Assembly: GCF_024521635.1 (NCBI RefSeq) | Contig: NW_026250416.1 | Span: forward strand, 744,001 to 808,000 | Origin: Tricharina praecox | Taxonomy: Eukaryota | Reading direction: 5' to 3' | DNA length: 64,000 bases | Shown here: positions 8,101 to 62,900 of the stretch, one piece after another | Layout: each line of letters opens with the position of its first letter | Numbering within the stretch: position 1 is the stretch's first letter | Notes under the pieces: model-generated | The model's input: the letters and a program-made list of their open reading frames with translations, nothing else | What the model was told of the DNA's origin: nothing | Database searches by the model: none | Position numbers and translations under genes: made by a program

Positions 8101-8862
8101 CCCGCGATTTCAGTTCAAGGATCTGGGAGCGAGTTTCGGCAGCCATCTCAACTACCGACTGATGTGGAAGGATCCCGAGATCTCCGCTTGCCATCCGATC
8201 CTGTCGTTAGCGTCGATGGTGACTTTTCCGGCACGCCGTCACTCGACGTATCACGTGTTGCACCTAGGGCACGACCCCTTTCGCCAGGGGGTGCTGTGAC
8301 TGCTGTGACTGCCCCACTACCAGAACCCACGCACACAAACGATGGTGGATCGTCCGTCTACAACCGAGCGAGCTGTTTGTCTTCTTCTTCCAACAACAAC
8401 AACCAAAACGGCAACGATCTCACCAGGGACGATGATATCCACCATCGAACACACCCGTGTGGTGACGGGGGAGAGGTAAGTGGGGAGGGAGCGGTGGAGG
8501 GCGACACGATCGCCGGGGTGTGGCTGGCAGGGGTTCCGGCGGAGAGGAGTCGATCGCCGTTGTTCGATCATCGCGCATACGCGTTGCGGGTTTTGGAGGG
8601 GGAGGTGGATCCAACAGCTCGTGACGCGTATGCGAGCTCAGTAAACGAAAGTCTACTGGAGCGGCCGGTGATCGGCGACACAGAAGATGGTTTGGGTGCG
8701 GACCATCGAATCGACTCCGGCACAGGTGCGGAAGGCGAGGGGGAGGAGTCCAGTGTTACAGATAACGCTGATGAGCCCGACCATACTCCGGAGCAGAGAC
8801 GCAACGTGTCTACCCGTTCGCCATGGGCTGGCGAACGGCTCGGGGGATTTAAGTTCCCGTAG
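5162..8862 (+). CDS. Large His/Pro/Arg-rich disordered repeat protein (~1196 aa, 3 exons)
   Basis: Exons 5162-5170, 5226-5665 and 5721-8862. Introns GTATGT..CTGAC..TAG and GTAAAC..CTAAC..CAG keep frame and join ORFs 5253..5669 and 5776..8862. Confidence 0.8.
6154..6441 (+). repeat. Coding tandem repeat, 93-bp (31-aa) unit x3
   Basis: GDxxxGRVExYPSQEExRxGxxxQxxHPYQT units start at 6154, 6247 and 6340 (partial at 6433). Confidence 0.9.
6619..7700 (+). repeat. Coding higher-order repeat, ~381-bp (127-aa) period x~2.8
   Basis: 6781 aligns with 7162, 6841 with 7222, 7001 with 7382. Each period holds three ~42-aa RPS(Q/H)E subunits. Confidence 0.85.
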
Positions 8863-24562: not shown

Positions 24563-25419
24563 AGTGAGGAGAAAAATAAGAGATAAACCGCGGCAAGATA
24601 ATGATGTAGTAAGATGCAGATAAATATGCGGTGCTGGCTGAGGTGACGATGTGGAGATGTGGAAATGGGAGCGAGCCAACCGACTGGGTACTGGGTGTAT
24701 GGGTGTATTGCATGGGTGTATGGTTACACTCGATCTATGTACGTACTTCTATGCGTGCCTCCTACCTTTCTTCCCTTCCATAGACAGCAAGAACGAAAGC
24801 GCGCTCCCTCACGTTTCTCACACGCCTCATCCGAAATGTTTGCTGCTGCATTCTGACACTTGGGGTTTTTCGAATAGCACGTGCACACGCCGTACTTGGT
24901 CTCACGGCAAAGAAGACTTGGCGGCAAGTCGTGGCGGCCGGATTATTCGAGAACATAATAGGATTGTATCCGTATGGCTATAATTCCCACCACGGTTGCA
25001 TAGGTTATGGACAAGATCATGTTGACCGGGTGGAAGGGATGCCTTATGCGAGTATCAGGAACAGGATGAACCTGTCGGGAGTGTTCCAAAACCGTGCTCT
25101 TTCCCGCTGAGAAGTTCATTGCCGCAATTCCGCCAGAACAATTGTGCAGATCAGGGCTACAGCCTACGGTAGTGGTCATGATGCTTTGCTCACCACCCAT
25201 CAATATCCCTCTCGCACACTGCTTACCGAAACATAGGAACATACACAATGCTACGATGATATGTGTCGCCTCGCCTCAACTGGTTCCTCCGTCAATAGCA
25301 ACTGTCAAACGACCGGTCTGCTCAACTTGAAGACGCACGGACAACCTATATGTTTCCATTTCATCCCCTGTATTCGATGCCGCATAATCCACAAGAAAGC
25401 TGTGCATACAGCTGAAACA

Positions 25420-33585: not shown

Positions 33586-34636
33586 TGAAATCGCCCCGCA
33601 CCCTCGAAGTTATTGACGGACGTCCCATCGAGTCAGGCGACATCACACATGTTACCACCACCACCCTGTCCATACAGAAACAGCATCAAGAAATTTCTAT
33701 GTTTGTCACCAAAGTAGGCCACTACCCCGTTGTACTGGGAATCCCCTGGATGGACCTCCACGATGGGGCCATCCGGTTCAGCTCCCGGACGCTAACCTTC
33801 GGCTCGCAATACTATAGGGCTAACAGCAATGAGTTGCGCATAGAATCACCACCGACCCGCCCTGCCTATCAACCTATGCTCTCACGTCAAAAGCAGCTGT
33901 GGAGGAGCCAAGGGTAAGCGCGGGGGGCGCCAACATTGTGGCCCACTGCATTACGTTGCCCCCAAGGAAGAATAACCCAGAATGGGCTAACCTTGCAAGG
34001 GAAAGCACTGTCATCATCTGCGCCCTACAGATGGACTCATTCCAAGAACTAGCCAACAAGGAGAGCCTTACGATTTGCAACAGCACGCTTGCCGAGGTCA
34101 ACATTGCGCTAGAAGGAAAGAAGGACCCCACGGCACATATCCCTCAGGAATACCACAAGTTCCTAGCACTGTTCTCTGAAGCCCTTGCCAACAACCTGTC
34201 CCCGCACCGGCACTACGACCATAATATTACACTGAAGTAGAGGTTTATGCCCCCATATGGACCATTGTACTCACTATCGAAAACGCAGCTCATTGCACTG
34301 AAAGAATGGCTGGAAAACAACCTCAGCAAAGGTTTCATCCATGCCTCTTCCTCTCCAGCAGCATTGCCAATTCTGTTTGTCAGGAAACACTGGACAGCTC
34401 CCTACGCCGGTGTGCGTATTACAGGGGCCTGAATGAAGAAACCATCAAGAACAGGTACCCACCCCCACTCCTCCAAGAAACCCTGATGCGGCTATCCCGG
34501 GCGAAATACTTCACCACCCTGGATCTCTGCGGCAGCTACAACCTGGTACGTATGGCGGAAGGAGAACAGTGGAAAACAGCGTTCTGGAGACGCTATGGCC
34601 TGTTCGAATCTCTCGTCATGACATCTATGCTCATAC
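33580..34636 (+). mobile_element. Older degenerate Gypsy copy B, 5' part (protease to RT, internal deletion to integrase)
   Basis: Homologous to 37980-39028 with stops and frameshifts; the last ~15 bp match integrase sequence at 40681-40695. Confidence 0.85.
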
Positions 34637-35920
34637 TGTCACGGCTCGCGACGGAATGACGAAGGGAGGGTCAGCACAAGGATCGGGAGAGTTGGGGGGC
34701 AGTGCAGAGGCAGTGCACCGGCAGTGCAAGTATGAGCCGCAGAGGATTGGGGGCTGTGTGCAGGGAGCAGGGATAGCGCAGTAATGAGCCGCAGGGGATT
34801 GGGGCTGTGTGCAGGAAGCAGGGGTGGTGCGGCTGCGCAGCGTATGAGTCACGGAAGCGGGGGTACTGGCAAGGTGGATTTCTCAGGGCCTGGCACACGC
34901 CCACGGTCATTGTCAGGTTGCGGGAACAAGTGGAGGATTTCCTATATAAACGGGCCGTTGCCTCTCTGAATTTCGTTCTTCACGCAACAACTTGTTAATT
35001 CAATCACTGTTACCTCTGTCCTTGCCTCGGCTGCCGTCTGCGCCGTAGTCCTTGTCCCTGCCTCTGTTCTCAGTTGCCGTCTGCACTGAGCCCTGCCTTA
35101 CCTTGTCCTCTGAACCCGTCTTGCCTCTGCCGAAGGCAGAACCCGATCCCCAGCCCGGCTTCGCTACCTGGAGCCTTGCCCGACCGTGCCGTTACACTTT
35201 GTTGCGTCCCATATCTCTCCACCTAGCGTACTACCACGGCCACCAACACTCAGGTACCCGACGTCCCCCAGCAGGACGAAGTACCAGTGGCACCCCCCTT
35301 CTACCGAGAAATTCGCGCCGCCATCTACGAACAACTCAATATCATCGTCAATCATGATGCACCCGCCGATGATGCAACCCTGATGGGGTTGTAGAACGAA
35401 TTCAGAATCCTCGCCCGCGCAATCACCCTGTCCCCAATAGCCATACTCACCTGGCGATTCGACGACCTCGAAGAACAACTTGCTGACGGCCGCCGCATCG
35501 CCAACCGCCTCGCCACCGTCGAAACCCAACCTAAAACCCGCGCTGAGCGTGTCCCAGAGCCAGCCATGTTCGACGATACACGCGAGAAACTGGAAGGGCT
35601 CGTGGCGCAACTTTGACCCAAGCTGTACAGCGGCCCAGCCCGTTTCCCAACTCCAGCACTCCGAATGGCGTATGCCTTCAACCGCTTGGAAGGCCGCGCC
35701 CAAGCCCAGATCCTGCCGTACATCGAAAATCACAACATCACCCTCACCGACGCTGATGCGATTATCACACTCCTGAACAACGCATTTGGTGACCCTGACC
35801 CAGCGGCCACCGCTCGAGCCAAGCTACACCACCTGAAACAAGGCAATAAGGAGTTCACCTCCTACTTTGCGAAATTCCAGATGCTTGTCTCCAAGCTCAA
35901 TTGGGACAAGCATGCGAAAC
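34637..35920 (+). mobile_element. Gypsy copy A: LTR (34637-35196) plus truncated gag
   Basis: TGTCACGG...CCGTTACA 560-bp LTR; gag homologous to 36519-37203, start mutated to ACG, one in-frame TAG, cut at HAK. Confidence 0.92.
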
Positions 35921-36518
35921 TGTCACGGCTCACGACGGAATGACGAAGGGAGGGTCGGCACAAGGATCGGGAGAATTGGGGGGCAGTGCAGAGGCAGTGC
36001 ACCGGCAGTGCAAGGATGAGTCGCAGAGGATTTGGGGCTGTGTGCAGGGAGCAGGGATAGCGCAGTAATGAGTCGCAGGATATTGGGGCTGTGTGCAGGA
36101 AGCAGGGGTAGTGCGGCTGCGCAGGGTGTGAGTCACGGAAGTGGGGTACTGGCAAGGTGGATTACTCAGGGTCTGGCACACGCCCACGGTCATTGTCAGG
36201 TTGCGGGAAGAAGTGGAGGATTTTCTATATAAACGGGCCGTTGCCCCTCTGTATTTAGTTCTTCACGCAACAACTTGTTAATTCAATCACTGTTACCTCT
36301 GTCCTTGCCTCGGCTGCCGTCTGCGCCGTAGTCCTTGTCCCTGCCTCTGTTCTCAGTTGCCGTCTGCACTGAGCCCTGCCTCACCTTGTCTCCTGTACCC
36401 GTCTTGCCTCTACCGAACCCAGAACCCGATCCCCAGCCCGGCTTCGCTACCTGGAGCCTTGCCCGACCGTGCCGTTACACTTTGTTGCGTCCCCCATCTC
36501 TCCACCTAGCGAACTACC

Positions 36519-37715
36519 ATGGCCACCAACACTCAGGTACCCGACGTCCCCCAGCAGGACGAAGTACCGGTGGCTCCCCCCTTCTACCGAGAAATTCCCG
36601 CCGCCATCTACGAACAACTCGAAATCATCGTCAATCACGATGCACCCGCCGACGATGCAACCCTGATGGGGTTGTACAACGAATTCAGAATCCTTGCCCG
36701 CGCAATCACCCTGTCCCCGACAGCGATACCAACCTGGCGATTCGACGACCTCGAAGAACAACTTGCCGATGCCCGCCGGATCGCCAACCGCCTCGCCACC
36801 GTCGAAGCCCACCCTCAAAGCCGCGCTGAGCGTGTCCCAGAACCCGCCATGTTCGACGGAACACGCGACAAACTGGAAGGGTTCGTTGCGCAACTTCGAC
36901 TCAAGCTATACAGCGACCCAGCCCGTTTCCCCACTCCAGCACTCCGAATGGCCTACGCCTTCAACCGCTTGGAAGGCCGCGCCCAAGCCCAGATCCTGCC
37001 ATACATCGAGAATCACAACATCACCCTCACTGATGCTGATGCGATAATCACACTCCTGAACAATGCGTTTGGTGACCCCGACCCAGCGGCCACCGCTCGA
37101 GCCAAGCTGCACCACCTGACACAAGGCAATAAGGAGTTCACCTCCTACTTTGCGGAATTCCAGATGCTCGTCTCCAAGCTCAATTGGGACGAGCATGCGA
37201 AACTTGACGCACTGCGAGAAGGAGTATCCATCGAACTCCACCGGCAACTTGTGGGCCGTACTCAGGGTCTCAACTACGACGGGTTTGTGGCCCTCTGCCA
37301 ACGCCTCGACTCCGAGCTGCGTGCCCTCCAACTTCGTGAGGGACGCCGTACCATCAACCCCCCTCGGCAGAGTAGCGCCCCACAACCCACGGCGCCGCTC
37401 AGGCACACCACCCAGAACACCATGCCCGTGACGACCACTGCCACAGGAACGGCCCCCGGAGCTATGGACTTGAGTGCCAACAGCCGCAGGATCTCAGATC
37501 AAGAGCGTGCCGCTCGACTCCGCGAAGGCCGCTGTCTGTACTGTGGAGGAAGTGGCCACATGGCGAGGCACTGCCCCAACAAGAACCGAAATCCGTTCCG
37601 AGCAGCCGTTGCCCGGCTGGAGACAACTCAGCCGACCAACACCACCCCGGCTCACACCTATCACAACTGCAACCAGGATTGCGGCGAGACCTCCCAGCAG
37701 TCGGGAAAAGCCTAG
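36519..37715 (+). CDS. gag: Gag with CCHC zinc knuckle (398 aa, intact)
   Basis: PEPAMFDGTRDKLEGF, LTQGNKEFTSYFAEF, AMDLSA, CLYCGGSGHMARHC. Confidence 0.95.
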   Translation: MATNTQVPDVPQQDEVPVAPPFYREIPAAIYEQLEIIVNHDAPADDATLMGLYNEFRILARAITLSPTAIPTWRFDDLEEQLADARRIANRLATVEAHPQSRAERVPEPAMFDGTRDKLEGFVAQLRLKLYSDPARFPTPALRMAYAFNRLEGRAQAQILPYIENHNITLTDADAIITLLNNAFGDPDPAATARAKLHHLTQGNKEFTSYFAEFQMLVSKLNWDEHAKLDALREGVSIELHRQLVGRTQGLNYDGFVALCQRLDSELRALQLREGRRTINPPRQSSAPQPTAPLRHTTQNTMPVTTTATGTAPGAMDLSANSRRISDQERAARLREGRCLYCGGSGHMARHCPNKNRNPFRAAVARLETTQPTNTTPAHTYHNCNQDCGETSQQSGKA

Positions 37716-37748
37716 ACCAACAACCGCTTGATGGCACTGTTGTTGGTC
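37703..37748 (+). promoter_or_regulatory. -1 ribosomal frameshift signal (slippery heptamer plus stem-loop)
   Basis: G GGA AAA at 37703-37709; 5-nt spacer; perfect 10-bp stem GACCAACAAC/GTTGTTGGTC (37715-24/37739-48); pol lies in the -1 frame. Confidence 0.85.
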
Positions 37749-40700
37749 GTACCCGGGATAAGTCTTTGTCTCCTATGTCCCCTATTTTTCGTTTGTCTAG
37801 TCTCTCAGTGTCAGGAATGGTTGTGGAGGAATCATCAATGGAAGGAAAACATCTTGTTGTATTGTGTAACCTTTCGTTTGGTGACAAAACCATTGCCACG
37901 CATGCGCTGATCGACTGTGGGGCAACCGGAATTGCATTTGTAGACAAAGACTTCGCCCGCCATCACCACCTACCCCTCGTACCCCTGAAATCCCCGCGCA
38001 CCCTCGAAGTCATCGATGGCCGTCCCATCGAGTCAGGCGACATCACACATGTTGCCACCACCACCCTGTCCATACAGGAACACCACGAAGAAATCCCTAT
38101 GTTTGTCACCAAACTAGGCCACTACCCGGTTGTACTCGGAATCCCCTGGATGGACCTCCACGATGTGGCCATCCGGTTCAGCTCCCGAACCCTCACCTTT
38201 GGCTCCCAATACTGTACAGCCAACTGCAATGCGGTGCCCACAGTTGCACATGGAATCACCACCGACCCACCTGACGTATCTACCTATGCTCTCGCGTCAA
38301 AAGCAGCTCAGCAAGAGCCAGCGGTAAGCGCGGGGGCCGGCGACATCGTGGCCCGCTGCATTACGTCTCCCCCAAGGATGAATCACCAAGAATGCACTAA
38401 CCTTTCAAGGGAAACCACAGTCAGAATCTCAGCCTTACGGATGGAGTCATTCCAAGAACTGGTCAGCAAGGAAAGCCTTACGATTTTCAACACCACTCTT
38501 GCTGAAGTCAACGGCGCACTGGAAGGAAACAAGGACCCCACGGCACATATCCCTCACGAATATCACGAGTTCCTACCGCTGTTCTCTGAAGCCCTCGCCC
38601 AGAACTTGCCACCGCACCGACACTACGACCATAAGATCCCACTCAAGGAGGGATTTACGCCCCCATACGGACCACTGTACTCACTTTCGAAAACGGAGCT
38701 TGTCGCACTGAAGGAATGGCTTGACGACAACCTCAGCAAAGGTTTCATCCGTGCATCTTCCTCTCCAGCAGCATCGCCAATCCTGTTTGTCAAGAAATCG
38801 CATGGCTCCCTACGCCTGTGTGTGGATTACAGGGGCCTGAACGAAGGAACAATCAAGAACAGGTACCCACTCCCACTTCTCCAAGAAACTCTGATGCGGC
38901 TATCCGGGGCAAAATACTTCACCACCCTGGATATCTGCGGTGCCTACAACCTTGTGCGGATGGCGGAAGGACAAGGGTGGAAAACTGCCTTTCAGACACG
39001 CTATGGGTTCTTCGAATCCCTCGTCATGCCCTTCGGCCTCACCAACGCCCCTGCCGACTTCAAAGCTCTGTTCAACGATGTGCTACGTCCGTTCCTCGAC
39101 GACTTCTGTACCGCATTCATCGATGACGTCTTCATTTACAGCGGATCCTTAGATGAACAGCGGAAACATGTCAGGAAAGTACTTCAGGCCTTATCAGCAG
39201 CCGGTCTACATCTCAAACCCGAAAAATGTCATTTCCACTAGACGGAAGTTAAGTATTTGGGACTGATCATTACAACAAACGGGATCAAGATGGACCCAGC
39301 GAAAGTCTCCTGCATACTGGAATGGGAGGAGCCGAGTACCGTCACCGATGTGCAATGCTTTCTGGGATTTGCGAACTTCTACCGGCGATTCATCCAAGAC
39401 TATTCCAAGGTGTTATCCCCACTGACAGCATTGACCAAGAAGGAGGATGGAAAGTATGTTCCCTTCGTGTGGGGACCGGAACAGCAGATAGCATTCGACG
39501 AACTAAAAACAGCATTCACCTCGGCCCCGATCCTCCGGCACTTCGACTACGATCGGCAGATAGTAGTGGAAACTGACGCCTCCGACTACGTCTCTGCCGG
39601 AGTCCTATCTCAGTACGGCGACGAGGGAATCCTGCACCCAGTGGCATTCTATTCCAAGAAACACTCCCCGGCAGAATGCAACTACGTGATCTATGACAAA
39701 GAACTCCTCGCAATCGTCCGCGCCTTTGAGGAGTGGAGACCACATCTGGAGGGCGCTCCTCACCCCATCCAAGTCCTAAGCGACCACAAGAATCTGGAGT
39801 ATTTCATGACAACGAAACTACTCAACCGACGACAAGCGCGATGGTCAGAGTTCCTTTCCCGTTTCCATTTCAAGATTGTCTACCGACCAGGCAAAGCGGG
39901 AGGAAAACCGGATGCACTGACCAGGAGGTCAGGAGACCTCCCTAAAGAAGGGGATGAAAGACTGCTCGCCAACCAGCAGGCAGTCCTGAAACCGGACAAC
40001 CTACCGGAAGAACTCCGGTTGGCAGCAACCAACACACCCGAACAAGACCGTCCCCTCCTCACGTCACTGATAACAGAAGGCTACGACATAGACCCCGTCC
40101 CAAATCGAATCCTCGAGCTACTCCGAAATGGTACACGCCACTCGAAGGAGATCTCCTTGGCCGAATGCCGCGAAGTCAACGGGCGACTGATCTACCGAGA
40201 CTGCCTCTATGTTCCAGAGTACGACCGACTCCGACTACGACTGATCCAGGACCACCACGGCCCACCGACCATGGGGCACCCAGGGAGCGCCAAAACCCTG
40301 GAACTACTTGCTCGGAGGTACTACTGGCCACAGATGCGAAAGGACGTTGATCAGTTTGTCCGAAACTGCCACACCTGCCGGCGAACTAAGGCCACCCGGC
40401 ACACACCCTATGGTGTCCTGCGCCCCCTCCCAGTACCCGAGAAGCCATGGCAACACATCTCAGTCGACTTTGTCACTGGCTTACCGGCCTCAAAGGGGTT
40501 TGACGCTATCTGTGTTTTTGTTGACCGACTGACCAAGCAACGCCATTTCCTACCATGTACCACGACCATCACCTCGGAAGGACTGGCCGAGCTGTTCTGC
40601 GACCGGATATTCAGGTACCACCGGTTGCCAGAAACCATCGTCTCGGATAGGGACCCCAGTTTGCCTCGAGATTCTGGAAACACCTATGCTCATGCCTCAA

Positions 40701-41700
40701 GATCGAGCCACGCCTGTCAACTGCCTTCCACCCCCAGACCGACGGCCAAACCGAACGGATGAACGCCGTCATGGAACAGCACCTCCGCGCGTACGTCAGC
40801 TACCTCCAGGATGACTGGGTCGACTACCTCTTCTTGGCCGAATTCGCTGGCAACAACCAGGTCTCCGACACGACTACCCTGTCCCCATTCTTCGCTAACC
40901 TAGGATACCACCCACGGTGTGACTTTGAGCTGGATATCCGTGTCGACACCAAGGAGGAACATCAAGCTCAGAGTGCAGCGGAACGGTTGCATCAAATCCA
41001 CGACGCCGCCGGCAGCCGGACGCAGTATGCCCAGGCACGGCAACAGGACACCTCCGACTGACACCGAACCCCTGCGCCAGCGTTCCAACCAGGCGACATG
41101 GTATGGGTGGATGGTCGGAACTGGCGCACCGAGAGACCCAGTCGCAAGCTGGAAAACTAACACCATGGTCCCTACCGTGTGATTCGGACAATCGGAACCC
41201 ACGCGTACGGATTGGACATCCCGGACACCGTACAGAAGCACCGAACATTTCCTGTATCCCTCCTTCACGCCTCCGCTGACGATGCCTTCCCTGGACATAT
41301 TCCACCACCACCACTTCCGGTAATCGTGGACGACCAAGAAGAATGGGAGGTTGAAGAGGTCCTCGACAGCCGGAACTTCAGGGGCAAACTCCAGTACCTG
41401 GTGAAATGGAGAGGCTACGCGGCACCAACATGGGAACCAGAGGAGAACCTTACCGAGGTACAAGCTGTGGACGACTTCCATCGACGATACCACATGCAGC
41501 CTGGACCAGTCGAACTTGCTCTCGTGGGAACTCGAGCCTTAGGAGGGACTACTGTCACGGCTCGCGATGGAATGACCAAGGGAGGGTCAGCACAAGGATC
41601 GGGAGAGTTGGGGGGCAGTGCAGAGGCAGTGCACCGGCAGTGCAAGGATGAGCCGCAGAGGATTTGGGGCTGTGTGCAGGGAGCAGGGATAGCGCAGTAA
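37703..41700 (+). pseudogene. pol: Pol (protease, RT, RNase H, integrase, chromodomain) with 3 stops and one frameshift
   Basis: ALIDCGATG; LCVDYRGLN, MPFGLTNAP, FIDD; ETDASD, YDKELLAIV; HHCC zinc region, ISVDFV, FHPQTDGQTER; WEVEEVLDSR..YLVKWRGY..TWEP. Stops at 39239, 41059, 41158; frameshift ~40652. Confidence 0.95.
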
Positions 41701-42111
41701 TGAGCCGCAGGAGATTGGGGCTGTGTGCAGGAAGCAGGGGTAGTGCGGCTGCGCAGGGTATGAGCCACGGAAGTGAGGTACTGGCAAGGTGGATTTCTCA
41801 GGGTCTGGCACACGCCCACGGTCATTGTCAGGTTGCGGGAAGAAGTGGAGGATTTTCTATATAAACGGGCCGTTGCCCCTCTGTATTTAGTTCTTCACGC
41901 AACAACTTGTTAATTCAATCACTGTTACCTCTGTCCTTGCCTCGGCTGTCGCCTGCGCCGTAGTCCTTGTCCCTGCCTCTGTTCTCAGTTGCCGTCTGCA
42001 CTAAGTCCTGCCTCACCTTGTCCCCTGAACCCGTCTTGCCTCTACCGAACCCAGAACCCGATCCCCAGCCCGGCTTCGCTACCTGGAGCCTTGCCCGACC
42101 GTGCTGTTACA

Positions 42112-43484
42112 TCGAGACACGACTATTTACTGCCTTCCACCCCCAGAAGGACGGCCAAACGGAACGAATGAATACAGTCATGGAATCACACCTCCGAGCG
42201 GACGTGAGCTACCCCCAAGACGACTGGGTGGATTACCTATTCTTGGCAAAGTTCGCTGGCAACAACCTAACATCCGACACTACCACCCTGTCTCCGTCCT
42301 TTACTAACCTAGGCTACCACCCCCGTTGCGGCTTCGAGCTCGATTTTCGAACTGACACGAATGAGGAACGACAGGCACAAACCCCAGCAGAACGGCTGCA
42401 GCAGATCCACGGCGTTGCCCGCAGTGAAATGCTTTACGCCCAAGCACGTCAACAGGACAACACCGACCTGCACTGGACTCCTGCCCCAGCCTTCCAGCCA
42501 GGAGATATGGTATGGGTGGACGGCCGAAACTGGCGAACGGAGCGATTGAGCCAGAAACCAGAGAATAAGCACCACAGACCTTACCAAATCACCCGGGCCA
42601 TCGGAACCCACGCATACGAGCTGGACATCCTGAATACCGTCCAGAACCACCGCATATTCCCTGTATCACTTCTTCATGCATCAGCCGACGTCCCTTTCCC
42701 CGGCCAGATCCTCCGGCCACCACTGCCGGAAACCGTGAACGACCAAGAAGAATCGACAGTCAACGAAGTGCTGGACAGCCGACTGCTCAGGGGAAAACTT
42801 CAGTACCAGGTCAAATGAAGGGGTTTCGCGTCGCCGACGTGGGAACTAGACGAACACCTGGTGGAGGTGCAAGCCGTGGACGGCTTTTTTTAACAATACC
42901 CAATGAAGCCGGGCCCAATCCAACTTGCTCTCGTCAAAACTAGATCCTTAGGAGGGTCTACTATCATGGCTCACCTTGGAACGTTCGAGTAGAAGTTGGA
43001 GCAGGGGTCTGAAGGCAGTGCGGAGGCAGCGCGGGGGTAGCACAAGGGGCAGCGCGGTCAGCGATGCAGGAATGGGTCATACGGGATTGGGGCTGTGTGC
43101 CGGTAACAGGGGTAGCGCGGCTGCGCAGGGTGTCAGTCACCGTAGCGGTGTATTGGCGAGGAGGATTTCTCAGGGTCTAGCACACGCCCACAATCATCGT
43201 CTGGTTCCAGGAAGAAATGGAGGATTTCCTATATAAACAGGCCGGCGCCCCTCTATAATTAGCTCTTCACGCAACAACTTGTTAATACAACAACTGTTAC
43301 CTCTGTCCTTGCCTTGGCTGCCGTCTGCGCTGTAGTCTCTGTCTCTGTCCCTGTTTCTCAGTTGCCGTCTGCACTGAGCTCTGCCTTGCCTTGTCCTCTG
43401 AACCCGTCTTACCCCCGCTGCATCCAGTACACGATCCCAGGCCCGACTTTGCGGCTTGGAGCCTTGCTCGACCGTGCCGTTACA
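42112..43484 (+). mobile_element. Older Gypsy copy B, 3' part (integrase C-half, chromodomain, PPT, diverged LTR 42962-43484)
   Basis: TAFHPQKDGQTERMN...EVLDSRLLRGKLQY; PPT TTAGGAGGG; LTR TATCATGG...CCGTTACA. Confidence 0.9.
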
Positions 43485-43635
43485 GAAACATAGTGTGACA
43501 CCCTGGTGTTCTCATGGGTAGTCAGAGCAAACACAGTGCGTTCAGAAGTGATCAGAACCCTGGAATAGGTAGTCATAGAATAAATAAGAGTTGGATAGAA
43601 GTAAGCAGACGGGATTCAGAGTCTGGACAGCAATC

Positions 43636-44718
43636 TGCAACGGCACGGTCCAGCAAGACTCCAGGTAGTGAAGCCGGGCGGGTGATCAGATACTGCGTCC
43701 GGCAGAGGCAAGACAGGTTCGGAGAACAAGGCAATGCAGGGCTCAGTGCCGACGGCAACTGGGAACAGAGGCGGGGACAAGGACTACAGCGCAGACGGCA
43801 GCCTGGGCAAGGCCAGAGGTAACAGTTGTTGGATCAACAAGTTGTTGCGTGAAGAACTAAATACAGAGGGGCAACGGCCCGTTTATATGGGAAATCCTCC
43901 ACTTCTTCTGTAACGGCACGGTCGGGCAAGGCTCTAGGTAGCGAAGTCGGGCTGGGGATCGGGTTCTGCCTTCGGTAGAGGCAAGACGGGTTCAGAGGAC
44001 AAGGTAAGGCAGGGCTCAGTGCAGACGGCAACTCAGAACAGAGGCAGGGACAAGGACTACGGCGCAGACGGCAGCCGAGGCAAGGACAGAGGTAACAGTG
44101 ATTCAGTTAACAAGTTGTTGCGTGAAGAACTAAATACAGACAGGCGGCGGCCCGTTTATATAGAAAATCCTCCACTTCTTCCCGCAACCTGACAATGACC
44201 GTGGGCGTGTGCCAGACCCTGAGAAATCCACCTTGCCAGTACCCCACTTCCGTGACTCATACCCTGTGCAGCCGCACTACCCCTGCTTCCTGCACACAGC
44301 CCCAATCCCCTGCGGCTCATTACTGCGCTATCCCTGCTCCCTGCACACAGCCCCCAATCCTCTGCGACTCATCCTTGCACTGCAGGTGCACTGCCTGTGC
44401 ACTGCCTCCCAACTCTCCCAATCCTTGCGCCGACCCTCCCTTCGTCATTCCGTCGCGAGACGTAACATCTTCCTGCAACCTGACAATGACCCTGGGTGTG
44501 TGCCTGACCCTGAGACATCCAGCTTGCCAGTACCCCGCTTCGGTGACTCATACCCTGCGCAGCCGCACTATCCATGCTCCCCGCACACAGCCCCCAATCT
44601 TCTACGACTCATCCTTGCACTGCCAGTGCACTGCCTGTGCACTGCCTGCTAACTCTTCTAATTCTTGCGCCAGCTCTTCCTTCGTCATTCCTTCGTCATT
44701 CTGTCGGGAGCCGTGATA
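43636..44718 (-). mobile_element. Gypsy LTR (43636-43908 + 44473-44718) interrupted by a solo LTR
   Basis: Reverse complement of the same LTR family; halves are contiguous once the insert is removed. Confidence 0.88.
43909..44467 (-). mobile_element. Solo Gypsy LTR with 5-bp TSD
   Basis: 559 bp TG..CA; TCTTC at 43904-43908 and 44468-44472. Confidence 0.95.
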
Positions 44719-45825
44719 ATATTAGAAACTGTACAAAAGCACAAAACGTTTCCAGTATCCCTCCTTGATGCCTCCCTCAAACACCCACTCGCCGGGCCAA
44801 TCCCACCGCCACCAGCTTCAGTAGTTAGGGACGGCCATAAGGAATGCGAGGATGAAGAGTGCTTAACAGCCGTAACCTCAGGGCAAACTCTGGTAGCTGG
44901 TGAATTGGAGGGGCTACGCAACACCCCCCGGAAACCCGAAGAAACCCTTACAGAGCTGCAAGCCCGGTGTCGTAAAAAAAAACCCTGGGAAAGTACTATA
45001 CCAATTGGCCAAAAGGTATTTTGATGAGTGATGGTGATTATCCCAGTAGCTATTAAGGCAAGGATTTGTAAACCGTGACAGTATCCCCTCTCTAGGGGCT
45101 TCCTCCATGCAGCCTTCAAGTAGTTAACCCCAATGAGTGATATTGCATGATAAGAATCATAATACACCACTCAGTGTAAGCCATGCTATTCCTGAATTAC
45201 CCCGCAGCGGGGGAAAATAACCACTCGCCGTGAGAATTGAATTCATGACCTTATAGCAGCCATCAAACTGTGATAAAGAATGCTGGGAAAGTATTACATC
45301 ACTCGCCCAAAAGGTATTTCGATGGCTGAAGGCCATCATCCCAGTAGCTACTTAAGGCAAGGATTTCTGAACCGTGACACCGTTGACGACTTCCACCATC
45401 GTTACCCCATGCAGTCTGGACCAGTTCAACTTGCTCTTGTGGGGACTCAGGCCTTAGGGGGAACTACTGTGACGGCCGGCGACAGGGCAACCGAGAAAGG
45501 GCCGGGACAGCGATCGGACGACTCGGGAGGAAGCGATTAGGCAGCGCAGGAATGAGTTGCACAGGATTGGGGCTGTGCATGTAAGAGCAGAGGTTGAACG
45601 GCTGCGCAGGTGTGAGTTGGAAAGCGGGCACTGCAGCGAAGGATTCCTCAGGGTCTAGCACACGCCCACTGTCATTATCGGGTTGCAGGAAGAAGTGGAG
45701 GATTTCCTATATAAATTGGCCGTTGCCCCTCTGTAATTAGTTCCTCACGCAACAAGTTGTTAATTCCACAACTGTTAACTCTGTCCTTGTCTCCACTACC
45801 GTCTCCACCGTAGTCTTTGTCTTGT
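44719..45825 (+). mobile_element. Degenerate Gypsy 3' end (integrase tail/chromodomain, PPT, truncated LTR from 45468), split by the TRIM
   Basis: LETVQKHKTFPVSLL..PIPPPP..; resumes VDDFHHRYPMQSGPVQLALVG at 45380; TTAGGGGG PPT then TGTGACGG. Confidence 0.85.
44968..45379 (-). mobile_element. TRIM-like miniature LTR retrotransposon (412 bp)
   Basis: ~112-bp TG..CA direct repeats at 44968-45080 and 45269-45379; 188-bp non-coding core; minus-strand PPT AGAGAGGGG adjacent to the 3' repeat; clean insertion into chromodomain sequence. Confidence 0.85.
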
Positions 45826-48800
45826 GCCTCCGCCACGCAGCTGCTTGGTCTTGAAGACCCACTAAGAGCTTATGGGTGTAATCCCAGTCGGAACGTCTTC
45901 CCACCGGATAAAATCCCATGTCGAGTTCTCGGCCAGCGACCGGAGTTTCTCGTCAACAGTACCAACCCACTTTGAGCCGAGCCCCGGGTGAGCAACTGCT
46001 TCCCGGTAGAACACCAGAGATGCACGATCCACTGGTTCCTCTTCCACACTAGATCTGGTGGGTGTCCGCTCGCGCCCTTTTTTGGAGATTATATCTTTCC
46101 GGAAAAGGTACCCGTGCCACAGATATGCTGTTGGTAATGACTGGTCACCAGGCGTAGCCGGGACACCTGGTGTGATGTCCCCAATCTGAAATTTATGCAT
46201 GCCTTCGCTTGCAGTGATGCCGCGCTCACTATCACCGGATTCGTCGCAGGTAACGTTGGATGCCTGTACCGCCTGCCGGCTTGCGGGGTCCCAGAGACGC
46301 AAGATTGTAGTACTGACGTGTACGTAGCCAACAAGGTAGTGCATCTCAGCTCGTGAGCCAAACTTCGTCCGCTGACTGGCTGGTACAGCTCGATAAGTGC
46401 GGCAGCCGAAGCTGCGGAGATGCGCCACAGCTGGCTCTGTCCCGTGCAGTTTCTCGTTAGGTGTCATGCCCTTATTCGCTGCGGTAGGGCTTCTCGCGTG
46501 CAGGTAGTTCGCCGCATACACCGCCTTGGCCCACATGCTTGTAGGTATGTGGCCGTCGATCATCATGGCGCGAGCTTTGGAGTTGTGCGTCTGAATCATC
46601 CTTTCCGACACACCATTCTTGTGCTGTGTGTAGGGCGGAGACGGCTCATAGGAGATGACGCACTGGGTAAGGATCCACCGGAAGGAATCGTTGTTGTATT
46701 CTCCTTAAACTCTTGGAATATCGCGCATATCTCCGCAGACGTCTTAGATCGCAGGAAGAACACCCAACTCTGCGGGCTATAGTGGTCGATGTAAAGCATA
46801 TAGTAGGGGCAGCCGGATTGGGATGGTGGCGTTATCGGTCCGCACAGGTCCGATTGAATAATCTCGGGAGCTCTGTCCGCGCTGCGGGACAGAGTCTGGC
46901 GTTGATACTGCTCCTTTGCTTTGGCCTTCATGCACACGGAGCTGATGGACTTCGCAGGTTGCTTTACGTAGCAGTCTTTCGGAAGTAGGACGCGGAGATC
47001 GGCGAGATTGAGGTGCACAAACAGTCGGTGCCAGGTGTCCAGGTCTGTCGTGTCTGCCGACGGGGTGAGGGCGCTGCTGCTTCCCATGGATGTACTGGCA
47101 AACGTGAAGTTCGCCGTAGCCGTGCCTGTTGCGGTGCCCGCAGCGTAGTTTGCTTGCGCATCCAGTATGACACCCCCGAGCAGAGTGCACACGCGTGGAC
47201 CGGATCGCCGTTCTCTCGATCTCTGTTGCCCAATGGCTCGTGACCGCAGAAGGCAATGACCGAGTTGAAAAACAACCTCACAGCCTGCCTCTTCCAGGCG
47301 GTCCACCGAGATCAGCGACACTCAAAAGTCTGGTACATATAGTACGTTCATTGTCAGCAGTATCGCGCAGTCAAGATGGAAGTGAACGCTTCCCATTTCG
47401 ATGGCCATGCACACAGCTCCATTGGCGACCTTGACCAGTAGTGGTGTAGCCAGAGCGCGGAGCTCTCGGAAGATTTCACGGTTGCCATACAGATGGTGGA
47501 AAGCACCCGAGTCTATGATCCATGCGGCGAGCGCCGCTGCAATACTTACAACCGCGGTGGAGAGACCATGAACCTCATTGCCGTAGTGGGAAGAAGCTGT
47601 CGTCGCATTCTGCTGTATGGCCTTCTTCTTGGTGAAGCCATCTTGCTCTCAGTGACCTTTCTTCCCACAGTGCCAACACTCGCCATCGAAGTTGGTCGCC
47701 TTGCGACTATTATACGGTTTCCGATTCTCCCCCTGACCGCCAGCGTCGTTACCGCGACTGCCACGCTTGCTTGAACGTTGCCTGCCTGTGCCGGTCTGTG
47801 TTTGGAATTACGAGAGACCTCCGGGTTGGTGACGGTGGCTGCGATGAGGGCATATCTGGTAGTGTTGGCGGTGTTGGTGGTTCCACCGGTTTGTTCGTTG
47901 CGCGTCCTCTCAGCGTTTTCGTATTCGATGAGTACATTTCTGACCGAATCAAGGGTTTCGTCTTCCTCGGGCCGGAGGCTGACCATGTCAACCGCATTCT
48001 TGAACGCTGCCGGGAGGGTTCTGAGAAGATGGGACATGATTGTTGCATTCGGAATTTCCTCAACTGTTCCATCCACCTGCCGTTGCAGATTCGTCATCGT
48101 GGCGATGTAGTCGGCCACCTTCTCGCTGTGTCGCATGATCATCTTCCAAAAGCGCTGCGCCATAGGAAGTCGCCCAGTCCGTGACGAAGCGGTGTCCAAC
48201 TTCTCCGCGAGGACCGCCCAAACCCCAGCTGGTTCTCTATCGGGTAGCTTGTTCAGCATAGCTCAAATACTCATCTCTACCGACGAATACAGCATGCCAG
48301 TGGCAAACCCGTATCGTTTCAGATAGGTCTCCCGAGCCTGGAAGCCTTGGCCTGCCGGTGCAGGCTCATTCCCCAGCACTATCAGGAGTGCGTTTTCAGA
48401 GGTGAGGAACATCGTGATGTCTGCTTTCCAGGTGTAGTAATTGCTTGCATTGAGCAGAGGGGTTGATCCGTGCTTACACATGTAGATAAACATGGTGATT
48501 GTCTATACGAGGTTTCGGAGGAGGTATACGTGCGACGACGAAGGTATGCGAGCGACGAGCGGCGAGTGACGAGCGAAGTTATGCGAACGGGAGGGGTAGA
48601 TTCTCAAGAGACGGTGAGTGATAAACTTCGAGAGAGCGATAAACTTCGAGAGAGAGATGTGCCGGGAGGCAATCCACCAGGATGGTGAAAGATAGAATAT
48701 TTCTCAAGTAAGTGATATTTTTCAGCGTCAAACCCGGCTCATAACCTGTCAAATATAGGAGTATAAAATCTTGATTATCGTCTGTCTTCTGCAGCGGCAG

Positions 48801-54120: not shown

Positions 54121-54361
54121 AAGGAGACGATGCATTTTGGCTGTGACGGTGCCGGATTGCTTGAACCGGGCATGTATGTGTAAATTCGATTGAAAGATGC
54201 GAGCGATAGGTCTCGCAACCTCGAGCTTACCCAGGCGCCACGCTAATGAAGCGATTGCGAACTTGGATCAATTCGAAGATTACATTCTGACCGCGAGCGA
54301 TCATGTCGAACACACAATCATGATACATCTTCAATCGATCACATCGATCATTAGGTGCTCC

Positions 54362-57300
54362 ATGAACCAGTTTCCATCCCCGTTTGATACCAAAAAGTAC
54401 GCAATGCGTGCGCCCATACCCGATCCCAGTGTAGATGAACAACCCGAGAGTCCTAACCGTCTGCCCTCAGATCTCAACCAAAACGTCGTAGACTTATTCC
54501 CAAAGGACTGGATACTGGACCAAAGGACTAGATCTTTGGGAAGCGCACCGGAAGCACCACCGCAGTTCGTCGACTCGCCCAGTACCGATTTGGGTATCGA
54601 CTGTAGTTCCGCATCACCCATCCGAACCGCAACCGAACCGCCAGAGCCATCTCACCCACCGCCCACGCGTCAAAACTTCATAGATGTCGTCTCGAGGGGC
54701 TGGGCACTTGCCTGTTGTACTGCATCCGTGGTAACGTCACCAGACTTACTGGCTGAGGCCGCTGAATGGTACGGTGCCGATCGCGTCCTCAACTATAATT
54801 CCGAGACACCTATCGGAACTGTAACCGAACCACAAAATAATGCCGATTCAGCGCACGTGGAGCCCGCAGCTACGCTGAGCGAAGCTGTCGCCATCGTCGC
54901 GAGTCCAATGCCGCCGTCAAACACTTCCTTTGAGACGTCGGATAGTAACAGACCTGAATTAGCGACGGACGAGAAACCTGTTTCCCCCAGCAAGCCGGCT
55001 GCTAGTCCGGACACCAAGGAGGTTCCAAAGACACCGGATATGAGGGAACATGCTGGTCGGCGAGCCCTGGAATGGCTGTCACCATATGATCCTCTCCTCG
55101 TGCTTGCAGAAACTCCTGGATCCGCGTTCGCCGGAGAAACCTCTGGTGGAACGACCGAGAATGTTCAAGATCCGAAAAACCCCGAGATTCTCTCAGTCCG
55201 GAAGATAACCCCCAACCTTAAAAGGAGCAACGCCGTACGCAGACCATCGCGGCATTCGACAAGCCCTTTCGCGAGTCCCCTCACGCCGTCGAACATGTCG
55301 TTCGATACGTCGGAACGGAAGGCACCAGAATCATCGGCGGACATTACCGCAGATGCCCCCAGCAAGCCTGCCCGTGGTCATGACACCTTAAAGGTTCCGG
55401 AGTCGCCAGGCACGCAGGAACATCCTGCTCAGCAGGCCGAGGAAAACGTCTCCCCATCTGAATGTCCACCCGGACCGGATTATCATCCTCGAAAAGTGCT
55501 TGGTGGTCCTGACACCAAGAACGTTCCAGAGCCACCGGGCACACCGGTACTTGCTGCCCAGAAATCCGAGGAGTCTCCTTCACCATATCAACCTCTCTCC
55601 TTACTTTCTCCTAGGACACCCGGCGTACCACCCAGACCACCCCCAAGGTCACCTGCGTCGGCCCCAATACCACCTCTGGCATCCCCCGTACTTGCCAGTC
55701 ATCCGGGAGAAGCGTCTGTTGGTCCTGACATTAAGGGGGTTATAGAGCCACCGGCAACGGAGGAATATGCTGAAGAGCAGGACGAGGGCCCTCCTTCACC
55801 ATATGAACCACCCGCCGTACTTGCAAAACATCCTAAGCCTCCCACCGTACCGCCCCGGCCACCCCCAAGGCCACCTGCACCACTTTCCTTACCACCCATG
55901 GCATCCCTCGTACCTGTCAATCTTCCTGGAGAGGCATCTGACCGTCCGGACACCAAGGGCGTTCCAGAGCCACTGGGCACGGCGGAGAATGTTGGCCAGG
56001 AGGTGCAGAGATGGCCGTCACCATATGAACATCCCACCGTACTTGCCAGTCATCCTGGAGAAGCTTCTCTTGGTTCTGTCATTAAGGTGGTTCCAGAGCC
56101 ACCGGCCACGGAGGAACATCCTGCAGAGCATGACGAAGGCCCTCCTTCACCGTATGAACCATCCGCCGTACTTGCAAAACATCCTGAGCCACCCCCCTTG
56201 CCACCCAGGCCACCACCTAAAGCACCTAGGACACCACTCATACCACCTGCGCCACTTCCCTTACCACCCAGGCCAGACCCGTTTCCACCCAGGGCACCAA
56301 CGGGACGATCCGTGTTAATTCCGGGGAGTAATGCGCCTCAAACCACCAGCACCACACAACAAACGGATCCAGAAGAGTTAACCGTCGAGTCGCGCCCACC
56401 CCCACTACCACCTAGGCCACCAATCAGACGGCCCGGGTTAGTTCCGGAGAAGAATGCGCCTCCACACGCTTCGACAACTGCGCAGGTGCGCAACCAAAAC
56501 ACAGTCCCGAAGAACACCACCCAGCTGAGACGAAGGGGTGCCGTACGGATCACGGGTCGGGAGACGAGCGTAACAATACCACGAAACGCAGGGCCGAGGG
56601 GTACTGCTGTGGTTTCAAACGCCACATCACGTGTGGGAAAAGTAGATGCGCCGAGGAAGGAGCCGGCGCCCAAGAACCCAGCAAGAACCACGACTGGCGG
56701 AGCCCCTGCAAAAACGGTGACTTTTGGAGCCCCCCCAGAAATACCACTGGAGGAGCCCCTCCAAGAAATGTGACTAGTGGCGCCACTCCCAGGAGCACCA
56801 CTGGCGGAGTTCCTCCAAGAGGCACCATTGGCGGAGGCCCTCCACAAACGCCAGTCGCTCCAAGAACGGCCACTGCTGAGGCTAAGGCAGAGAAACAGGC
56901 GCCGTACATGTCGAACTTCACGGAGAACCTCAATATATTCGTCGATACTGCTGCCACAAATGCTGAGGCCAAGAAGGAGGGTGTGTTGGCAAAGGGCTTG
57001 TTGATGGTTACAAACTCCCTGATGGGACTAAGCCTAACTTCGTCAGCGGAAGGTGCGAAGACCTTGCAAACTGCGATGTTCAGCTCGTCGAAGATGTTCA
57101 TAACCCCACCTTTGCTGGGAGCAAAGCCGACGGTATTTCCGCCAGTGCGTCGAGCAGATCCAGCAAAGCCCACCACGACATCCGCTGCCGGACCAAATGC
57201 GAACGCACGTCCGGGAGTTCCTTCGAAGCCGCCGCAGTTAGTAGGAGCAAGTACAATGCCCGAGAGGCCACCTAAACCCCCACCCCCAAGCGGCACAATG

Positions 57301-59908: not shown

Positions 59909-62900
59909 GTTGATGATGTGGAATGTGATTGTAGTGGGGATGAGATTATGACTTTAGGTGGTGTGGGAGAGCAGAAACGCGAACGTGAAGGGGAATAGAG
60001 AGTGCGAGACTACGATGGTAGGGAGGAGTGGAGATGAGAGAACCGAGACGATGAAGGAGGATGCAGAGTGCAAGACTGAGGCCGTGATAAGAAGGAGGAG
60101 GATGAGAACCCCTGCTAGCTAGATGGTATTGTGTGCCCTACGTAACGTCTACCCCGCCGCATTGAGCTTCTCCCACTGTGACTGCCATTGCCGCATGGAG
60201 GCAGCGTCAGCTCGGCCGTCCAGATATGAACGAAATTTGACGGCGTGTGCAATCCGTAGATGGGTAGTCAATAGTCGATTCATGAGTGTTAGATGATCGG
60301 AAGACAGTATTTGTTGGATGGTCTTCCAGCGGGTGGTTGGCTGTGCTCGGTGTTGATGGTTTGTGATGTCATCACCCTCTATTCCCGAGCCGCAACTGGC
60401 TGGGGTGACTCAGCGCTCTGGGTGCGACAACGCTGTGTGACGTACATTCGAAGGGGGTAGAAAGCAAAGGTATGAAACGATTCTCCGTTGTAGATGACAG
60501 GCAGACAGTTTGGAACCCGAGATATCCGAACTGGAGTCCTTCCGACGGTGGTACATGGAGCCTGATCAGTTTCCGCATAACGCCTCCCGTACTGACGCTT
60601 GCTCCAGCCCTCGTCTACAAATAGAACCCCTTCAAATTCGCCTAAAAGAATATCAATCCCGCTTTGAACTTAATCAGCCTATGAAGGGAGGATTATTGCT
60701 ATCCATTCGAGAATGATTGGTGTGGTGGCACGGTCGTCCAGTCCGAGGCCACGTGGTGAGGACGACACAGAGCTCACGGAGTTCGGTATCTGTAGCCGAC
60801 CGTAGTGAGGATTCCTCCATCAAACCCGGGGGTTTCGGACTTCGAATCTTTCGATCGGCTGTTGAGGGCGGGTGCTAGGAGTTTGCCCATAGCCATGGCT
60901 TTCTTCTGCTAGAAATGTCTGCAGAGATAAAATCAACTGGATCAATGATAGCATACCTTTACCGGTTCGCGCCTTTCGGACGTGCGATAATCGATATCAG
61001 CGTCCGAGAACTGCTGCTGGTAGAGTATACTGTATGCCCATATCGAGAGCTCCATGTCTCCGCTGCCTGTACTGACCACACAGATGAAGCCAAATCGATG
61101 ATTGATAGCATTCCCCCCGGAGATCCACGCGGTTTGGACGTAGGATAATCGATATCGGCGACCGAGGACATCTGCCAAGGGAGCATGCTCATAGCCTTAG
61201 TTCCATCTATCTTCAGCTAACACTGACCGCGGAGCCGACCCACCCCGATGTGTGATATCCTTGAGTGTTGCACGCTGCTTCAACTCATGGTTCCTCGCTC
61301 CAGGCTCCGCTATGATATGCTCAGTATCGCGCGTTGCATATTCAAGATGTGGGTAGTGCGGTATCTTCCCTATTGCTGACCAGCATTGGGAGCAGTATCG
61401 GTTGCTAAAGAGGACGGAGTCATGGGCGCAAACGACTCGGATCATGGACCTCAGTGTATTCCGTCTGAAAGCTGACAGCTGGAGAACATGATTTGGCTTG
61501 AGGACGGCTGCCGACTGGAGAACGGGAGCCGGCTTGAAGATGGCAGTTGGCTGGAGAACAAGCATTGATTATCCATCGAAGGAGACCCTGAATGTGGAGC
61601 CTGATAACTGCAGTCGAGAGCCAGTAGACGGTGGTGTGTGTGAGAGTTTCCCGAGATGGAATTCGGAAACAAGGCACAGCTGGAATGCAGGAGGAAGTTG
61701 AGTCACGCAGTGATCCGAAGTACTTTCTGGGCCTACAGGAGTACAGTGGCCAACAGAAGATACAGACTGCCGGTGTCGGAGACTCGGAGTATGTATCGCC
61801 TGCTCGATAGACAAGTTGTTCGCACCCTGGTTCAGCAGGTAAGTCCGAGGACCTAAGGGTGCCATGTTGGTTTCAATACACATACCATGCAATCGACCAC
61901 GCCTCCGATCTTTTTTATTAGACCATACCCAGTGACCCAGCGGTATCTGTTGCAGAGACTAAAGTGCATACCACCACTCGACGTCGATGGAGACGCGATT
62001 GAACTATCCGGCAAGCGGCGCTGCTAGAAAGATGATGCAACAATCACCGAGTAGACCCAGATGGCGTCGAGCTGTGAGGGCGACGATATGTACCGAATAG
62101 CTTTGGTGAACATCAGTAACGACCTTCTAGTCACAATTTCGGAACGCACAGCTCCTGGTTACTTTACCGCTAAAAGGTCCGCATGCTCTATGGAACTCAT
62201 AACATCCTTAATCCATACCTCTGGCTTTCTGTGATGATCGCACCGCTACTATCGTATTCCTCAAGGTTGGAGATGGTATTTATTCCTGCAGGTCCGACAA
62301 AAACACACTCCAGCGGCTTCTTCAAAGCAGTTGGCGTAGTAGTCATCGGTAGCGCCACCTAAACATTATTTCCTCCGCCCGAAAGCGCACATGAATTAGC
62401 TACAAAGAGTGAGAGTGCTCGTCGCATGTAGCACAACAGAATTGAAGCGAAGCATCGCGTTCGTGCGATTCTATGTTGGTGTCATTCAGCGCATGACTTA
62501 AGGCCGTTAACATCCTACACCTCTGCATCTAACATTCCCGAGAGGAAAGAAAATGTCACTGAGGATTACCGCCGTGGTTCGGATTTACGTATTGCCATCG
62601 AGCAGTGGAATCATCACTTGAGTAGAGGCAACTGTTCGTGCGATACTATTTTGGTCGCCGCAGAAGGCAGATCCTAGTGATGAGGCGTAGCACAAAGCGC
62701 AATTCATATTCAACTTTAGGCACCGCTATTATCATAGCTCTTGTGGTCTAGCGGAAAGGTGCCTCAGAATTCATGGGGAAATCCGCGGTTCGAATCTGCG
62801 CTTGAGCTTTTTATGTTTTCGCTTGTCACTCGATTAAATTTTCACTCCTTGAGCCAAAAAGCAAAGGTGGTCATCGAAGCCTTATTATTTACAGGTTGTC

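Follow-up and report, generated by a model that had tools for sequence, protein, structure and literature searches.

A 412-bp unit at 44968-45379 of the analysed window (the whole stretch of DNA, 64,000 nucleotides in length) is probably an old, inactive copy of a multi-copy, non-coding family of TRIM size that is mobilised in trans and depends on self-priming of the Tf1 type. The unit, hereafter the mini-element, consists of two direct repeats that flank a 188-bp non-coding internal part. Read on the minus strand, it has the following features.

45269-45379, minus strand: 5' LTR of the mini-element, 111 bp, TGTCACGG...TATCACA
44968-45080, minus strand: 3' LTR of the mini-element, 113 bp, TGTCACGG...TACGACA
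45081-45268, minus strand: internal domain of the mini-element, 188 bp, without a long ORF
45081-45093, minus strand: polypurine tract AGAGAGGGGA (45084-45093) plus TAC, adjoining the 3' LTR
45268, minus strand: spacer of 1 nt (G) between the 5' LTR and the primer-binding site
45257-45267, minus strand: putative primer-binding site TTTGATGGCTG, complementary to LTR positions 52-62
45318-45328, minus strand: putative self-primer CAGCCATCGAA, LTR positions 52-62
45349-45355, minus strand: weak TATA-like motif TTAAGTA, read from the sequence, with a putative role

The two repeats, both of which have TG..CA ends, are identical in 91 of 114 alignment columns (80%), the remaining columns comprising 11 transitions, 8 transversions and 4 gaps. 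Stop-to-stop frames located wholly within the mini-element are all 64 aa or shorter. An initial sequence-only reading of the window had described a 412-bp non-coding unit with TG..CA repeats of about 112 bp and a polypurine tract; this description is borne out, the repeats measuring 113 and 111 bp and the frames remaining short. The TATA-like motif precedes the putative primer by 27 nt, and the other LTR reads TTAATAG instead. A scan for promoters and terminators of the bacterial type, a method not suited to a eukaryote, returned nothing.

The mini-element splits the remains of an older retroelement, and short sequences at its two borders appear to be what is left of a target duplication.

44692-45467, plus strand: host of the insertion, an old chromovirus copy whose decayed integrase C-terminus and chromodomain are interrupted by the unit
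44963-44967: CCCGG, putative remnant of a 5-bp target duplication on the left side, with exactly 5 extra bases against two empty paralogues
45380-45384: CCGTT, putative remnant of the same duplication on the right side

The flanks of the unit, 44725-44963 and 45382-45579, match a single contiguous stretch, 41224-41678. When the unit was deleted in silico, the joined flanks aligned to 41341-41567 (77.6% over 232 nt) and to 42767-42970 (65.1% over 209 nt), and the only gap in each of these empty-site alignments is 5 nt long and falls precisely at the junction. The five extra bases imply that 412 + 5 bases were added, as expected if the integrase duplicates 5 bp of target; at the target site, the empty paralogues read CTGTG and CCGTG. 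Judged from these alignments, the mini-element is a true insertion into the chromodomain region of a chromovirus copy, the own LTR of which begins TGTGACGG at 45468. The intact paralogue of this region (41161-41559) matches the Pfam families Chromo (1.6e-12) and SH3_Tf2-1 (4.9e-08). The copy in the window is old and dead, judging by the decay of its target duplication and by the identity of only 80% between its repeats. RIP was considered as the source of the LTR divergence and ruled out because 11 transitions stand against 8 transversions.

The surroundings of the host copy, 42111-45830, form a nest of chromovirus debris. Within this nest, 42111-43484 is related to 40702-42111 at 74.7%, the stretch 43909-44467 is a copy of the LTR in inverted orientation with 94% identity to the intact one, and two inverted LTR fragments, 44049-44251 and 45619-45821 (203 nt, 81%), bracket the host copy of the mini-element. 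Beside the nest, at 45862-48262 on the minus strand, three separate frames contain Copia-type fragments matching Retrotran_gag_2 (2.3e-10) and SH3_retrovirus (1e-14), together with a weak gag_pre-integrs match below its cutoff, so that this region looks like a broken Ty1/Copia element.

Evidence for further copies of the mini-element comes from contigs of four soil-metagenome runs (X1-X4), which were compared with positions 44600-45700 of the window, the differences being taken from the rows listed. Loose contig ends with dissimilar flanks fall exactly at the border 45379 (11 in X1, with an agreement of 0.43; four in X2; one in X3), and five in X1 fall at 44972 (agreement 0.5). Across the LTR, depths in X1 add up to as much as 2747, compared to 6.6-8.8 for the window's own contigs; because organisms are pooled in it, this sum is no measure of copy number. 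The depth in X1 is 17 at 45192-45228, in the middle of the internal part, thin cover that is not counted as proof of absence.

Three contigs carry the internal part itself. Record 27 of X4 (328 nt, depth 69) covers 45053-45358, in the order LTR, polypurine tract, internal part, primer-binding site and LTR, and differs from the window by 36 other letters and 3 gaps, that is, it represents a copy diverged by 12%. Record 4 of X1 spans 45136-45379 and then runs into a flank that differs from that of the window, which places it at another locus, and record 12 of X2 covers the internal part at 45114-45252. Ten of the listed differences, all within 45197-45255, are common to X1 record 4 and X4 record 27. 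These two contigs indicate that the short form is present at no fewer than one second locus, and, on the evidence of the contigs, the mini-element is a member of a multi-copy family.

These observations bear on the explanation that the unit is a one-off deletion derivative, whereby a full-length chromovirus inserted, lost nearly all of its internal sequence and left a short form that never moved. The matching contigs would then come either from the LTRs of full-length relatives or from related strains with the insertion at this same locus. We consider this unlikely. TRIMs are generally believed to arise by deletion from full-length elements, self-comparison of the 64-kb window finds the mini-element in one copy only, and the large excess of LTR depth over mid-internal depth in X1 would mean that most LTRs of the family are joined to something else. 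However, in X1 record 4 the internal part, the primer-binding site and the LTR are joined to a different flank, the complete short internal part is present in X4 record 27 at 12% divergence, and the two contigs have the ten listed differences in common, so that the short form exists at a second locus.

Searches for further relatives were conducted in two additional collections. A 23-base LTR pattern had no matches in metagenome_contigs; an 18-base pattern matched at least 117 stretches there, and none of these 117 resembles the unit beyond 22-29 nt around the motif. In viral_contigs, three DNA patterns matched 0, 8 and 4 stretches, none of which is related to the mini-element. No autonomous element with the LTR of the mini-element was found in the window, in metagenome_contigs or in viral_contigs.

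The case for self-priming starts from a base pairing between the leader and the LTR. The minus-strand pairing of 11 bp, with one G-U pair, that had been claimed for a site 1 nt past the 5' repeat was reproduced: TTTGATGGCTG pairs with CAGCCATCGAA exactly in this manner, and the 3' repeat reads CACTCATCAAA at the primer position. The frequency of such pairings by chance was estimated for helices beginning 0-4 nt after a 111-nt stretch, and helices of at least 11 bp, with G-U allowed, occurred at 202 of 20000 random places in the window (1.0%); shuffling of the repeat gave such a helix in 506 of 20000 trials (2.5%). With G-U allowed, the pairing in the window copy is therefore only mildly above chance, which is suggestive but not compelling. 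At 3 of the 11 primer positions the repeats disagree, and in each case one of them complements the site; when the letter of either repeat was allowed and only Watson-Crick pairs were counted, 4 of 20000 column shuffles reached 11. The best comparable pairing in the plus-strand reading is 5 bp, so the minus orientation is the right one.

An RNA that starts at LTR position 52 and extends past the site is predicted to fold such that nucleotides 1-11 pair with the site around a hairpin, in both the MFE and the centroid structure. With a predicted energy of -22.6 kcal/mol (z -1.77), this fold is only modestly better than those of shuffled sequences, 10 of 200 of which do equally well; as the 5' end was taken from the hypothesis, the fold shows consistency and is no test. 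Among the listed variants of the family, 45294, 45297 and 45299 are located in the loop of the predicted hairpin, and 45306 C>A would disrupt one of its pairs.

The contigs are informative on the primer as well. At 45320, C>T accounts for a depth of 1230 out of 1236 in X1 (26 contigs) and is present in all covering contigs of X2 (five), X3 (one) and X4 (three), for a total of 35 contigs over the four runs. The family majority has A where the primer of the window copy has G. This substitution turns the G-U pair into A-U, so that the family repeat is a perfect 11-nt complement of the site in the window, and a perfect match of an 11-mer was seen at 5 of 40000 random places. None of the differences listed for X1 record 4 and X4 record 27 falls inside the 11-nt site, and the primer-binding site is probably conserved in these two other copies that span it. 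Both copies differ from the window at 45253-45255, 2-4 nt beyond the 11-mer, and this change argues against a longer tRNA site.

A further comparison is provided by a neighbouring element.

35921-42111, plus strand: neighbouring chromovirus, coding for gag, PR, RT, RNase H, IN and a chromodomain

The Pfam domains detected in this chromovirus are Retrotrans_gag, RVT_1, RNase H, Integrase_H2C2, SH3_Tf2-1 and Chromo, and its LTRs, 35921-36479 and 41553-42111, are 559-561 bp long. The sequence-only reading had noted that the repeats of the mini-element start like the local Gypsy LTR. Indeed, the start TGTCACGG is identical, and the polypurine tract together with the LTR start, GAGGGGATACTGTCACGG in the mini-element and GAGGGACTACTGTCACGG in the chromovirus, is alike in 16 of 18 positions; beyond this segment, no similarity between the two elements was detected. 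The chromovirus has a fold-back match of its own, in which the 9-nt TTGTTGCGT (36482-36490) complements ACGCAACAA (36265-36273) within the LTR. TTGTTGCGT occurs 2 nt past each of the two 5' LTR copies of this element, and ACGCAACAA lies 39 nt downstream of a TATA box, TATATAAA (36226-36233). A match of a 9-mer in a 560-nt LTR arises by chance at 63 of 5000 random places, and the RNA folded from ACGCAACAA onward is predicted to pair its 5' end with the site. Because the neighbouring chromovirus has the same layout, the fold-back signal of the mini-element is inherited from its lineage rather than newly invented.

It is improbable in our assessment that the mini-element is a genuine non-autonomous LTR element primed by a tRNA, a tRNA fragment or another molecule, with the 11-nt inverted repeat reflecting chance or a different RNA structure, such as one for packaging or dimerisation. 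Such a reading draws on the chance expectation of 1.0-2.5% for the helix of the window copy and on a TGG found at +7 from the LTR. Against it are the absence of TGG from the first 5 nt after the LTR, the perfect 11-mer of the family majority with its far lower chance expectation, the position of the site only 1 nt past the LTR, the shared layout of the related chromovirus and the variability directly past the 11-mer in the two other copies. Furthermore, Rfam at gathering score yielded no family, and no tRNA, in the whole window. At 62736-62809 on the plus strand, ARAGORN called a tRNA-Asn whose anticodon, ATT, is unusual and which precedes a T run. The Rfam tRNA model scores below gathering there, and the locus may represent a tRNA gene with an intron, a pseudogene of a tRNA or a repeat derived from one.

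A local, non-mobile tandem duplication of 298-299 bp in about 1.4 copies, a reading that fits the start-to-start spacing of the repeats (298-299 nt) and the loss of a clean target duplication, is highly improbable and already contradicted by the empty-site alignments, with exactly 5 extra bases relative to both paralogues, and by the many contigs that stop precisely at 45379 with dissimilar flanks, as well as being at odds with the TG..CA ends of the repeats and with the match of the polypurine tract and LTR start to the chromovirus.

The interpretation that we favour, a TRIM-sized family mobilised in trans with self-priming of the Tf1 type, retains the core of the sequence-only reading, namely a non-autonomous self-priming parasite of chromoviruses, which is supported by the 5-bp insertion signature, by a family with a perfect complement and by the chromovirus-like polypurine tract and LTR start. 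Under this interpretation, transcription would start at about LTR position 52, as in Tf1, and the 5' end of the mini-element RNA would fold back onto the primer-binding site. The RNase H of the partner would cut just after the duplex and thereby free the 11-mer, which would prime minus-strand synthesis, whereas the polypurine tract would prime the plus strand. Finally, integrase would insert the 412-bp DNA and produce the 5-bp target duplication. Gag, RT/RNase H and integrase would be supplied in trans by a chromovirus of the lineage next to the mini-element. Within this scheme, the start of transcription, cleavage by RNase H, the priming step, movement in trans and the choice of partner are inferred.

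The chromovirus at 35921-42111 is a candidate for the lineage that supplies the trans-acting proteins. The sequence-only reading had argued that the different primer of the mini-element could point to another partner family. This argument fails: in self-priming, primer and site sit on the same RNA and need only match each other, so a primer unlike that of the local Gypsy element is no indication of another partner family.

Among the 120 listed of 5928 database matches, the chromovirus pol shows 60-70% identity to Morchella sextelata proteins and 67% identity, over half the query, to an Aspergillus fumigatus protein. These relatives fit an ascomycete host, the soil fungus that carries the mini-element being probably of this group, and the earlier attribution of the DNA to a fungus is consistent with them, although in both cases the basis is a neighbouring mobile element. 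A search of viral_contigs with the pol protein recovered 9 chromovirus contigs with 35-46% identity; their use as a positive control for fold-back priming was dropped, as only terminal overlaps of 45-116 nt were present and the LTR borders were undefined.

The chromovirus itself has a complex structure. No target duplication was found at its flanks, which mismatch (CATAC or GAAAC versus TCGAG), so the element offers no local standard for the length of the duplication. Its start is present in tandem, with the LTR and about 725 bp of leader and gag (34635-35921) occurring again at 35919-37204 (93.7% over 1287 nt), and the resulting order from 34635 onward is LTR, partial internal region, LTR, full element. 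The tandem start and the mismatched outer flanks suggest recombination or nested truncation rather than one clean insertion.

Elsewhere in the window, a weak match to an OTT_1508-like deaminase was detected at 21866-22726 on the minus strand (E 1.9e-4, 21.8 bits, cutoff 27). Three long open frames, 5716-8862 (1048 aa), 22949-24748 (599 aa) and 54194-56773 (859 aa), have no Pfam match and overlap tandem DNA repeats, for example, 6618-7038 with 6999-7419 (83%), and 55483-56247. These frames may encode repeat-rich proteins or represent non-coding repeats.

A broader proposition, which we put forward tentatively as quite possible but somewhat short of probable, is that the mini-element belongs to the first recognised self-priming TRIM family, a high-copy, 412-bp parasite of fungal chromoviruses that carries its own LTR-derived primer and escapes tRNA as well as coding constraints. 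The approximately 300 distinct bases of the mini-element would then be a minimal cis set for reverse transcription and integration of the Tf1 type, and many copies in soil fungi would conserve the first ~80 nt of the LTR, primer included. Our literature search found no described self-priming TRIM or other non-coding self-priming LTR element, although supplementary TE libraries of fungi may contain some.

If true, fold-back priming extends beyond autonomous elements of the Tf1/sushi type to their miniature parasites, and a natural element of 412 bp shows how little cis sequence replication of this type requires. The evolutionary step would be small, given that a deletion derivative of a self-priming chromovirus that retains the LTR and the leader also retains the signal. 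With primer and site on one molecule, such parasites would be free to alter the primer, and a shared primer would be a poor guide to the pairing of parasites with helpers. Annotation pipelines that rely on a tRNA-type primer site to validate small LTR elements would under-call such elements in fungi.

The mini-element resembles TRIMs in its size, its short TG..CA repeats, its short non-coding internal domain with a primer-binding site and a polypurine tract, and its presumed reliance on autonomous elements. Its repeats of 113 and 111 bp fall in the TRIM range of ~100-250 bp, and the total of 412 bp is well below 1 kb. Described (plant) TRIMs are said to carry a tRNA-type primer site, and the mini-element differs from them in having a fold-back match in place of a TGG-type site next to the LTR. 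Gypsy- and Copia-related TRIMs have been annotated in fungi, with 2 and 7, respectively, in Cochliobolus heterostrophus, and the passages on these TRIMs do not address priming (PMC4112212). In a paper on bivalve TRIMs, self-priming figures only as a known alternative, and no mechanism is proposed (PMC6934838). Cassandra, Helenus and Ajax are presented as TRIM-like elements with small-RNA genes (PMC10886601). Like the mini-element, they are short non-autonomous LTR elements; in the mini-element, by contrast, a search for Rfam families had zero matches in 44000-46500 at E up to 1.

Elements of the Tf1 type share with the mini-element a site by the 5' LTR that complements about 11 nt of their own LTR rather than a tRNA, as well as the polypurine tract, the TG..CA LTRs and, probably, the 5-bp duplication. 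Tf1 makes a 5-bp target duplication, and self-priming is known in many fungal chromoviruses and has been proposed for Tcn1 and Tj1. A 5-bp target duplication has been reported for a Tcn1-like chromovirus (PMC2864245). Unlike Tf1-type elements, the mini-element lacks gag and pol, measures 412 bp in total and has LTRs of 111 bp, so that the likeness, read from sequence, is confined to cis signals; without Gag, Pol and a chromodomain integrase, it is of the Tf1 type in cis only and not an autonomous member of the group. A counterpart of the U5-IR-like stem-loop of the Tf1 type may be the hairpin predicted in the loop of the mini-element, with three family variants in the loop of this hairpin and one, at 45306, breaking a pair.

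The neighbouring chromovirus shares with the mini-element the identical LTR start TGTCACGG, the fold-back layout and a short spacer after the LTR. It differs in the length of the LTR (559-561 bp versus 111 bp), in the remaining LTR sequence and in the primer pair, which is ACGCAACAA/TTGTTGCGT in the chromovirus and CAGCCATCAAA/TTTGATGGCTG in the mini-element, and these differences indicate that it is not the direct parent. The combination proposed here is that of TRIM architecture with the priming mode of the chromovirus lineage to which the element is related.
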